From IMG/VR virus record IMGVR_UViG_2718218100_000001: a stretch of DNA of 64,000 nt; one strand, given 5' to 3'. The position numbers are program-made. Below are positions 1-3,000 of the stretch, one piece after another. How positions within the stretch are numbered: the stretch's first letter is position 1; each line of letters begins with the position of its first letter. Origin of the DNA: a virus (Duplodnaviria > Heunggongvirae > Uroviricota > Caudoviricetes).

Positions 1-3000
1 ATGGAAAAAGACCTGAAAGAGTTGCGGGAATACCTATTACTTTCCCCCGTCTATTCTGAAATTAACGATTGTCTGGCTAGTCTCTCAATGGAAGACGTGA
101 CCAATGAAGAGTTCGCGGAACGTTTGGGAATTGCTCCTGATTGGATGGATGCTATAGATACTAGCCAACTTGCTTAAGAAAGGATGCGCCATTGCTGGGC
201 GCGTTTCTCATTTCTCCCGTAGCACTACGCATACCTTCTAATAAATTTCACCATCAAAATCAGTAGATTGATAAAATGTCACTCAAATCTGTCATAAGTA
301 TCACAATTTTTAAACCTAATTGAAATATAATGTTATTAGATATTATCTAATGGAGGTAGTTTAATGTCTTATGCGTTGATTGATAATGCTTCGTTAACAG
401 CAGTCGAAAGAACACTGGGTGATATTCTTGTTAAGAATCCAGATACTATTAACGGAGATTTAGTCGCTTTTGAAAATCTTATTCAAGCGATACTTTTTTA
501 CGATACCCTGATCTGTGTAGATAATTATAAAAAAGAATATAGAGATAAACGCATTGCTAAATTTGACTTTATTAAATTTGTATCTGAAAGTGATTTTCAA
601 CTCAGTGAACTTGATCAGTTAGCACAAGTTGAATCTCGGCAAATTACTTCCGAAATTAGAGGTGGGGAGTTTGTTGACGATGATTTTAGGCAACTTGTAG
701 AGATGCTTAAGCTGAATATGATTTGCACATGGGATCTTCGGTCTAGCGTGTATTACTTAACAATGAAAATGCTTGGTCAGCCCGGTACTCCTGAATATGC
801 GAAATATAGTGAACTAAGTGCATCGATTTTTAATGAATTATCAGATGCTTCTGATACGAAAGGGTACTGGTCAACCGATGTGAAGCTAGTGAGTTCATCT
901 GGACATGAATATACTGAGCGTGAATTTGAACTAGAAAGGGAAAAATCTACTCGCGGTAAAGGAGGTATGACTCGTTCACTTGAAATGTTTATCGCATCGC
1001 TAAATTGGTTGGCATATAAATCTATTTATTACAGCGTCATTGCTAAGCATTTTAAAGCAGACTCATTTATTCATCCAATAAGGCATGCATATCAATTGCA
1101 TTGGATGAAAAAAACAGGTGCTTTTGGTCATGATTATACTGCAAGGTTGGTGCAATCGTTGTCTGATAAAATCAGTACTGCAAGATCTGAAATTGTAGAT
1201 CATGGACGCACATCTACTATTTCATTAGATTTACCAATATTTTCTGCATGGCTAGCAAACGAAACAGGAAATGTCTCTCAAGTTATCAATTCAGCTTTAG
1301 AGCTTAGAACACATGATCATTTTCGTACGTGTCGAGATGTAATCCGAGAGATTCATGTGACCTACGATGAATCGGGGATAAGTGCAGGAAATAAAAAAGT
1401 AACAAAATTACTAAGTGATTTAGATAAAATATCTGGAGATATTAAACGAAGCTACGGTGTTCCATCAAATCAAGGTATTCAAGGCAGTTTTTTGATAAAA
1501 TGTATAAATTCATTGACAGGACTCGTGGGTATTCCAGGTTTGCCTGATAAAGAGTTTGCACTGAGCACTCCTGAATTTATGAAGTCTAAACAACATAAAG
1601 CATTTTCTACCGTTTTCAAGGATGTTACTAACGAACTAACAAGCATTGAACGTTTAGGTGGGCTTCGGGATAAATTAGCGTCGAACTTTACTATTGATGA
1701 TTCTTATTATACCGAGCCAAAAACAGAGGATCCGAGATTCCGTTACGTAAGTAGTAATTGGAAGCAGCCAATGTAGATATAGTTAAATGTATAATTATAA
1801 GTAATAACAATTTACAGACATTATTGAATTAAAAATATTGCGTTAGGGTATAATATCTAACGCAATTAGATTGAAAAGTTAATTAAATAGTTAGTCAGAG
1901 CTAACTTCTTGTATTGTTAGTTACACTGCCTAACCTACAGACAAAAAGCCCCTCAGAATTGTGCTTACGCGCTCAAATTTCACTGCTGGGGATTTTTACG
2001 TACATTCAACCCAAAAAGTGACCAAAAAAGTTCTTACAGAGTTGACGTTACGTTGACGTTGTTTTCTGAAAATGATCCCTTGGTGACTTATTTTATGTAT
2101 TTGATTTTACGTTTTTTCTTTAATGTTTTATCACTTTAAACTAACGTCAACTTATCCTTATAGAGCGATTAATTTCTATAAGTACTTTTTCTCAAAATTT
2201 GATTTTTACGGATGGAAGTCCATCAAAGAAACGTCATTTTTTTCTAAGACTTTGATCTTTCGTTAACGGTGTTAGTGGGGACTTCGGTCGTCGAGCGCGA
2301 TGCGCTTCTGACCGTTTCAATGGATAGGTTCGCCTTCTTGCGCCTCTCGCGGCGTTTGCCGCGCTCCGCGCTTTTGGCGGTTTGGCAGGCATATCTCTCT
2401 TATTATTGGTCGTTTTTTGCACCGCCTTGTCACGATCTGTCACTACTAGTAGTAATGGTCATAACCTCCGCTTTCTCTTTTGGCTCTGGATGCTCTCACT
2501 CGTGCTCTTCTTAACATCCTTAACAGTGGGTGGGTTTGTACTTTGTTCGAGTTTATTATCTGTGAGGATAGTAATTCCCTGCGCTCTGTCTCTGCCTCTT
2601 TGGTGACCGCTATCACTGATAAATCCCAATCGTGTTTGCTAATTAACGGTGCTTGGAACGGGGTGATTGGTGATCGATTTATGTCTTGTCGTTTCAATGT
2701 ACGCTGTATCTGTCGCTTAGCTTTGTAGTTGTCTTTCCTTGATGCCTGAACGGCTTTTAGTATGCGTCTTACAGCATGAAAGCCAGTGATAGAAAGTGTT
2801 TCTTTTTTTATCTCATGCCGCGCCCAGCCATTCGAATAACCCCAAACGTTGGCATCTGACCAATCATATAGGCTCTTGCTCGCCTCTCTATTAAAGTCAT
2901 TTAACTTAGTTTCGGGCTTTGCCATGTAATCAATCTGTTTACCTATACACTTTGTAGGCTCTGAATATTGCTGACCTTTCAAATCTAGATCCCACTGGGG

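Follow-up and report, generated by a model that had tools for sequence, protein, structure and literature searches.

Rousset and colleagues are said to have described, in 2022, defence hotspots of P4-like satellites and P2 prophages. A small element at the tRNA gene argW of Escherichia coli is like these hotspots in that a conserved mobile backbone holds one sharply bounded locus where unrelated defence genes interchange, and differs from them in that its backbone, which carries a tyrosine integrase, an inovirus-gpII-like replication protein (Rep) and a serine resolvase, is not P4- or P2-like. The left part of this element opens the 64,000-nucleotide (nt) stretch of viral DNA analysed here (Caudoviricetes, IMG/VR record IMGVR_UViG_2718218100_000001; hereafter the window), where its cargo is a single gene encoding a protein of 470 amino acids (aa). 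We propose, as a plausible but tentative reading, that this is a stand-alone anti-phage protein of the abortive-infection type, with a PIN-like nuclease effector and a C-terminal sensor or gate. It is a candidate one-protein phage defence because the E. coli slot holds anti-phage systems in sister elements and because its N-terminal part has a PIN-like fold.

GAPS6 (GapS6a/GapS6b) is an experimentally tested anti-phage system of Gamma-Mobile-Trio islands that acts on several coliphages, lowering their plating by 10^2-10^4 (Mahata et al., bioRxiv 10.1101/2023.03.28.534373). It consists of two genes, with a main protein of 1094 aa, whereas the 470-aa gene is single, and no sequence similarity between it and the 470-aa family could be detected: a family profile, run with hmmsearch against all 7,039 open reading frames (ORFs) of the fetched loci, alternative cargoes included, recovered family members only. 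As far as the accessible parts of two reports go, single-cassette anti-phage systems are present in chromosomal and mobile integrons (Darracq et al., bioRxiv 10.1101/2024.07.02.601686; Kieffer et al., bioRxiv 10.1101/2024.07.02.601719), and none of the systems named in those parts is the 470-aa family. Like them, the family forms one-gene attC cassettes, in Vibrio vulnificus and Stutzerimonas, but its cassette is large (1.5-1.6 kb), and in E. coli the gene lacks attC and comes with an upstream region of its own. The PADLOC defence candidate PDC-S06, a single-gene AAA ATPase, is likewise a single-gene occupant of the argW slot; this cargo is unrelated to the 470-aa gene, encodes 877 aa and lies on the opposite strand. 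To the VapC-type PIN ribonucleases (RNases), the toxins of type II VapBC modules, the 470-aa protein has no sequence similarity; it also lacks an antitoxin gene and has a C-terminal extension of ~330 residues without a structural match, and its own nuclease activity is putative. As a kind of system, a one-protein nuclease defence that travels as mobile cargo is already known. For the 470-aa family, for the architecture of its C-terminal part and for the element that carries it in E. coli, there appears to be no earlier description.

Anatomy and conservation of the gene

The gene and the sequences that accompany it lie in the window at:
364-1776, plus strand: 470-aa gene ECs_3238, ATG start (Sakai annotation)
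255-363, plus strand: upstream region of ~110 nt that travels with the gene in Enterobacterales, aligned with the Salmonella and Dickeya upstream regions
1837-1866, plus strand: hairpin ATTGCGTTAG...CTAACGCAAT, 3′ of the stop codon, common to the Dickeya copy

An earlier note on this DNA, made from the sequence alone, had singled out an AT-rich ORF with its own Shine-Dalgarno (SD) sequence, assignable to no family and adjoining a degraded prophage, and in these respects our analysis agrees with it. The ORF at 364-1776 has 36.2% GC, while the window as a whole has 48.6% and the flanking prophage DNA 45-52%; GGAGG stands at 352-356, 7 nt 5′ of the ATG; searches of Pfam, NCBIfam, PADLOC and PDB sequences gave no match; and the adjoining prophage is P22-like, being the Sp16 of the Sakai annotation. 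In 26 of 28 hosts the gene exceeds the flanking DNA in AT content, with a difference of up to 29 points. Further upstream, a −10-like TATAAT is found at 326-331 and TGTCA half-sites at 277-281 and 290-294, and a consensus promoter scan called no promoter in this region. A canonical Pho box was rejected, since the half-sites are spaced 13 bp and not 11. The hairpin at 1837-1866, with the E. coli downstream region, was considered as a relic of an attC site and also rejected, its bottom strand being unfolded (−1 kcal/mol, z = +0.99). No Rfam match was found in window 1-3300.

The gene is under purifying selection, with a ratio of non-synonymous to synonymous substitution rates (dN/dS) of 0.05-0.12 between genera; the O157 and O113 alleles show three synonymous and two non-synonymous differences. 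The window is DNA of E. coli O157:H7: its first 2,300 nt (1-2300) match 316 of 5,426 complete E. coli genomes at 99% identity or more, and these genomes, a few excepted, belong to the O157:H7/O55:H7 lineage. Absence of any phenotype, together with lack of expression or degradation in related genomes, had been named in the earlier note as a sign that would speak against its reading: the gene is transcribed and regulated, and it is intact in 315 of these 316 genomes and in all ten sampled assemblies. A literature search by its accession and locus tag returned expression tables only and no functional study.

The only full-length match of the protein is phrog_13435, a PHROG of unknown function. 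Among 1.84 billion proteins its family amounts to 316 representatives at 50% identity, almost all with 460-475 aa; the length is constant across phyla at ~466-472 aa, and members are never joined to another domain. Full-length relatives of 54-86% identity occur in Gamma- and Betaproteobacteria, Syntrophales and Geobacter, and remoter ones (30-45%) in Verrucomicrobia, Spirochaetes, Chloroflexi and Clostridium. Public sources hold no name for any member. Searches with the 470-aa protein gave noise only in NCBIfam 20.0 and no family in PADLOC-DB 2.0; a Pfam scan of 24 divergent relatives one by one gave no recurrent weak match.

Some individual copies deserve mention. In the O157-type strain MA11 (NZ_CP040314.1) a copy of IS1203 is inserted within the 2.3-kb locus that corresponds to window 1-2300. 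Four IMG/VR proviral contigs hold the gene at 364-1773, the same offset as in the window, and the window may therefore come from a predicted provirus of this kind. In Pseudomonas aeruginosa megaplasmids of ~495-500 kb, an N-terminally truncated copy (residues 132-470, without the PIN-like domain; 9001-10005 of locus L094, the L numbers being our handles for fetched loci) adjoins an msrE/mphE/armA resistance region bounded by insertion sequence (IS) elements.

Mobility in other bacteria

The 470-aa gene is an autonomous single-gene module that occurs as an integron cassette, a prophage gene and island cargo. In 32 genomes of other genera it has no conserved neighbour, and no backbone gene of the argW element, including the 58-aa ORF described below, lies within 10 kb of its homologues. 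The ORFs that flank it directly in six genera are mutually unrelated. In the same 32 genomes no VapBC-like adjacent antitoxin gene is conserved, and the single-gene cassettes are bounded by attC on both sides. ORFs of 228-241 aa in Salmonella and V. tasmaniensis were considered as a hidden downstream partner and rejected, as they are unrelated to each other.

Only the V. vulnificus and Stutzerimonas homologues qualify as integron cassettes. In V. vulnificus the one-gene cassette lies in the chromosomal superintegron (attC at L044 9851-9975 and 11431-11555), and in Stutzerimonas it lies in a chromosomal integron near the integrase gene intI (TIGR02249, 496 bits), between attC sites at L051 7905-7979 and 9404-9473, the bottom strand folding, as it should for attC, at −16.6 kcal/mol. 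The attC sites of both hosts have the common end sequences TATAACAAAGC ... GGCGTTATGCG, and this likeness suggests that the cassette may have passed between integrons together with its own attC. An attC core is also found directly 5′ of the gene in Shewanella and V. tasmaniensis. One 90%-identity cluster spans Stutzerimonas, Vibrio (V. cholerae, 133 contigs, and V. paracholerae), Vreelandella and Shewanella, which points to a recent transfer among these genera; the V. cholerae copies are on contigs of ~1.07 Mb, the size of the superintegron-bearing chromosome 2.

Elsewhere the gene keeps company with defence genes. In Salmonella its island also contains AbiGi, a BrxD/TerB/helicase module, Mrr, CbtA/CbeA and an antirestriction gene; the V. 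tasmaniensis copy adjoins SEFIR/TIR, SIR2+DUF87 and AbiH; and Hachiman, Lamassu, Cap4, ParE and PIN genes are further neighbours of family members. Members of 30-39% identity are found in predicted temperate phages with terminases, replication genes and CI-type repressors, and a phage-plasmid of Clostridium kluyveri carries a divergent member beside a recombinase and repressors. A tblastn search of 50,697 sequenced phage records (INPHARED) gave no match to the gene.

The argW element and its cargo slot

The part of the argW element that is present in the window has the following features:
1-3164: left part of the argW element, whose intact form is at L036 4978-13094
1-177, plus strand: 58-aa ORF ECs_3239 (WP_000409798.1), backbone gene of the element
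182-206, plus strand: terminator-like hairpin ending the left backbone, 9-bp stem with five G-C pairs (terminator scan)
209-1938: variable cargo slot, 1.73 kb in O157, holding only the 470-aa gene and its own upstream and downstream sequences
1939-2445: conserved non-coding backbone, where right-hand homology between cargo variants begins
2446-3141, minus strand: Rep gene of the element, ECs_3236, 5′-truncated (Sakai annotation; comparison with the intact element)

The intact element, of 8,094 bp, was found in E. coli O113:H21 FWSEC0010, bounded by a perfect 23-bp repeat of the argW 3′ end. Its order is tRNA-Arg, tyrosine integrase, a 240-aa ORF, a helix-turn-helix (HTH) gene with small genes, Rep, origin-like non-coding DNA of ~500 nt, the 470-aa gene, the 58-aa ORF and the serine resolvase. 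Its full-length rolling-circle Rep has 350 aa and matches Pfam REP_ORF2-G2P, being inovirus-gpII-like. In strains free of the element, csc/dsd is joined directly to argW. A search of the accessible literature brought up no description of this rolling-circle element at argW.

ECs_3238 and ECs_3239 are annotated in Sakai within "prophage Sp16; P22-like phage", an annotation that takes together part of the argW element and a P22/CUS-3-like prophage remnant. Set beside other E. coli genomes, the gene proves not to be prophage cargo: the intact O113:H21 element carries it without any P22 genes, and in the O157/O55 lineage a decayed P22/CUS-3-like prophage with IntS has taken the place of the element's integrase side, in O157 of everything beyond the 5′ part of rep. 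Published work, consistent with this replacement, describes argW as hypervariable, with CUS-3-like phages inserting there and decaying.

How sharply is the slot bounded? In blastn comparisons between element variants, the backbone is 90-97% identical to window ~175-242 and again from ~1927-1976, and the DNA between these two boundaries is unrelated among variants. At least seven different cargoes occupy it across E. coli and Klebsiella, GAPS6 among them; the others are:
470-aa gene: O157/O55 lineage, and eight genomes with the intact element
821-aa and 330-aa gene pair: ~170-200 E. coli genomes, no Pfam, PADLOC or NCBIfam match
877-aa ATPase: strain 300081, full-length match to PDC-S06 (E = 0)
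395-aa HNH endonuclease: strain EC0026B
HNH_2 and two small genes: sister element in Klebsiella
DpnII/MboI-like protein and a 232-aa gene: another E. coli

GAPS6, PDC-S06 and the HNH, HNH_2 and DpnII/MboI-like cargoes being what they are, five of the six alternatives are therefore defence systems, candidates for such systems or defence-type nucleases, and the slot is a sharply bounded defence hotspot at argW. The sixth and commonest alternative, in which the genes for 821 and 330 aa overlap (L034 5263-8717; also L035 and L039), is a second candidate system of this hotspot.

The hairpin at 182-206, which the earlier note had described as terminator-like and preceding the gene, registers in the terminator scan, yet its tail has few T residues and its folding energy is unexceptional (z = −0.91), and the three terminator-like sites of the region are no excess over the 2.0 expected. 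It is by its position that it matters, at the end of the conserved left backbone just 5′ of the cargo slot. The ORF at 1-177 had been taken for a partial one and for a possible partner of the 470-aa gene. It is instead a complete gene, its ATG starting at window base 1, and it is a backbone gene and not a partner, because a homologue accompanies each alternative E. coli cargo examined and tblastn found none in 32 loci of other genera. It matches phrog_35119 over its full length, with weak matches only to WYL_3, Sigma70_r4 and excisionase, and is possibly a small HTH or excisionase-like regulator. In the sister element of strain AR_0137, this ORF is interrupted by IS903B (L035 18001-19243).

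Within the non-coding backbone, GTTGACGTT occurs twice in tandem at 2041-2060, and an inverted copy lies ~90 nt downstream near 2143-2152 (2133-2154). The stretch with these repeats could be a Rep binding or nicking region, that is, a putative origin.

Predicted structure of the protein

The AlphaFold2 model of the 470-aa protein, built on a 66-sequence alignment, has a predicted local distance difference test score of 79.3 and a predicted template modelling score of 0.83. It contains the following domain:
364-774, plus strand: PIN-like domain, residues 1-137, alternating beta and alpha elements in the model

The remainder is a mixed, mainly helical body with a 47-residue helix at 318-364. Residues 1-137 form a three-layer alpha/beta/alpha fold of ~130 residues with a parallel beta-sheet, as PIN domains do, so that in the model the N-terminal domain folds like a PIN ribonuclease. 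Across 28 sequences, down to 33% identity, D7, D32, D53, R16, R63, W123 and S128 are invariant in this domain, and E37, D47 and D124 are nearly so. D7 is at the end of beta1 in the motif hhhDN, D53 at the end of beta2 and D124 in beta4. A PIN active site is defined by four conserved acidic residues that bind metal (at the end of beta1, after beta2, at the end of beta3 and after beta4), and on alignment the conserved residues appear to match such a site only in part.

No acidic residue is clearly conserved at the third canonical position, D105 and D107 being variable, and D124 varies in the most divergent members of the family. No Pfam PIN model matches the 470-aa protein or its 24 divergent relatives at E < 1, and hhalign of the N-terminal profile with an approximate VapC sequence gave a probability of 0.1%. 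Foldseek found nothing significant in PDB and BFVD, and the ~330-residue C-terminal part has no structural match. An HEPN RNase (Rx4-6H) was also considered and rejected: the O157 protein has R240-x5-H246, but divergent members do not retain H241 and H246, and no HEPN profile matches the protein.

Proposed function and its alternatives

What might the 470-aa protein do? In the mechanism that we propose, the N-terminal PIN-like domain (residues 1-137, with D7, D53 and D124 plus D32/E37) would act as a metal-dependent nuclease effector, probably an RNase, and the C-terminal part of ~330 residues would hold it inactive until a phage cue is sensed. The gene would have spread as a one-gene module via integrons, prophages, defence islands and the small argW element. 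Of this picture, the anatomy of the gene, its mobility on its own, the exchange in the slot, purifying selection, transcription and a fold-level likeness to PIN domains are observed, and the role in defence, the nuclease activity, the autoinhibition and the kind of trigger are proposed. The earlier idea of AT-rich island cargo with an anti-phage or toxin role is borne out in part: the gene is mobile cargo that exchanges places with defence genes, and the anti-phage role itself is a matter of probability.

The association with defence genes is not universal, for in at least four genera (Dickeya, Aeromonas, Azospira and Shewanella) the gene is a lone insertion among housekeeping genes. The protein might be an accessory enzyme that benefits the host independently of phages, acting, for example, in RNA or nucleotide processing or in stress and nutrient limitation, under which it would be induced, and spread for its usefulness; this we regard as unlikely, though worth keeping in mind. 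We give less credit to the idea that the gene serves mobile elements, as an anti- or counter-defence factor, a weapon in superinfection or competition, or an addiction-type toxin. It is true that temperate phages and a phage-plasmid carry it beside lysogeny genes, that it resides on a small integrative element and in integrons, where toxin-antitoxin modules stabilise arrays, and that the PIN fold is typical of VapC toxins. However, no context offers an antitoxin-like partner, and a single-gene cassette has no space for such a partner; the gene also persists stably by itself in chromosomes where no element surrounds it; it is absent from the 50,697 sequenced phage isolates; and 470 aa is, from general knowledge, large for a typical anti-defence protein.

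The Sakai annotation, which places the gene inside a P22-like prophage, and its membership of phrog_13435 would fit a leftover structural or lytic gene of Sp16, or a decaying pseudogene. This is highly improbable and can be considered effectively excluded, given that the intact O113:H21 element has the gene and no P22 genes, that no INPHARED phage matches it, that its dN/dS is low and its length steady across phyla, and that it is transcribed and regulated.

If the proposed anti-phage function is correct, essentially every O157:H7 isolate, together with a few other E. coli lineages, would carry a new compact defence protein encoded in ~1.4 kb, of which the effector fold is known and the sensor is not, and this could affect phage-based control or typing of O157. 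Since one gene suffices and already moves among Vibrio, Pseudomonadales, Enterobacterales and phages, it should be easy to test and to transplant. A broader claim, that the family is a new one-protein anti-phage family combining a diverged PIN-like nuclease with a sensor fold unseen in the PDB, that the argW element is an undescribed minimal island shuttling defence genes, and that the 821+330-aa pair is then a further new system, is possible as a whole but rather doubtful. The argW hotspot can in addition be mined for more systems, and accounts in part for the hypervariability known from the argW-dsd/csc region. Should the prediction fail, the family would still be a widespread and strongly conserved orphan with a confident model and regulated expression, worth characterising.

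Prophage remnant and right-hand neighbours

To the right of the argW element part, the window continues with:
3124-5973, plus strand: P22/CUS-3-like remnant, with a needle-knob fragment, DUF2824, a gp7-like gene and a fusion of an injection protein with an acyltransferase fragment
6148-7341, minus strand: IntS-type prophage integrase of the remnant
7467-7541, minus strand: tRNA-Arg (CCT), argW, where the element, Sp16 and the downstream Stx1a prophage are integrated

The P22/CUS-3-like remnant is joined to the cargo unit and is not part of it. Its last ORF (4837-5973, 378 aa) is a chimera of a P22 gp20-like injection protein (Inj_translocase) and an AT-rich Acyl_transf_3 fragment; its GC content falls to 28-36% after ~5400. 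The chimera marks a deletion junction next to intS. No stx2A is present in the window. A second integrase gene (7662-8906, plus strand) directly follows argW and is in turn followed by a lambdoid prophage with stx1a (window 7600-30000 and beyond). The Stx1a phage is integrated in tandem with Sp16, an arrangement unlike that of Sakai and 86-24.
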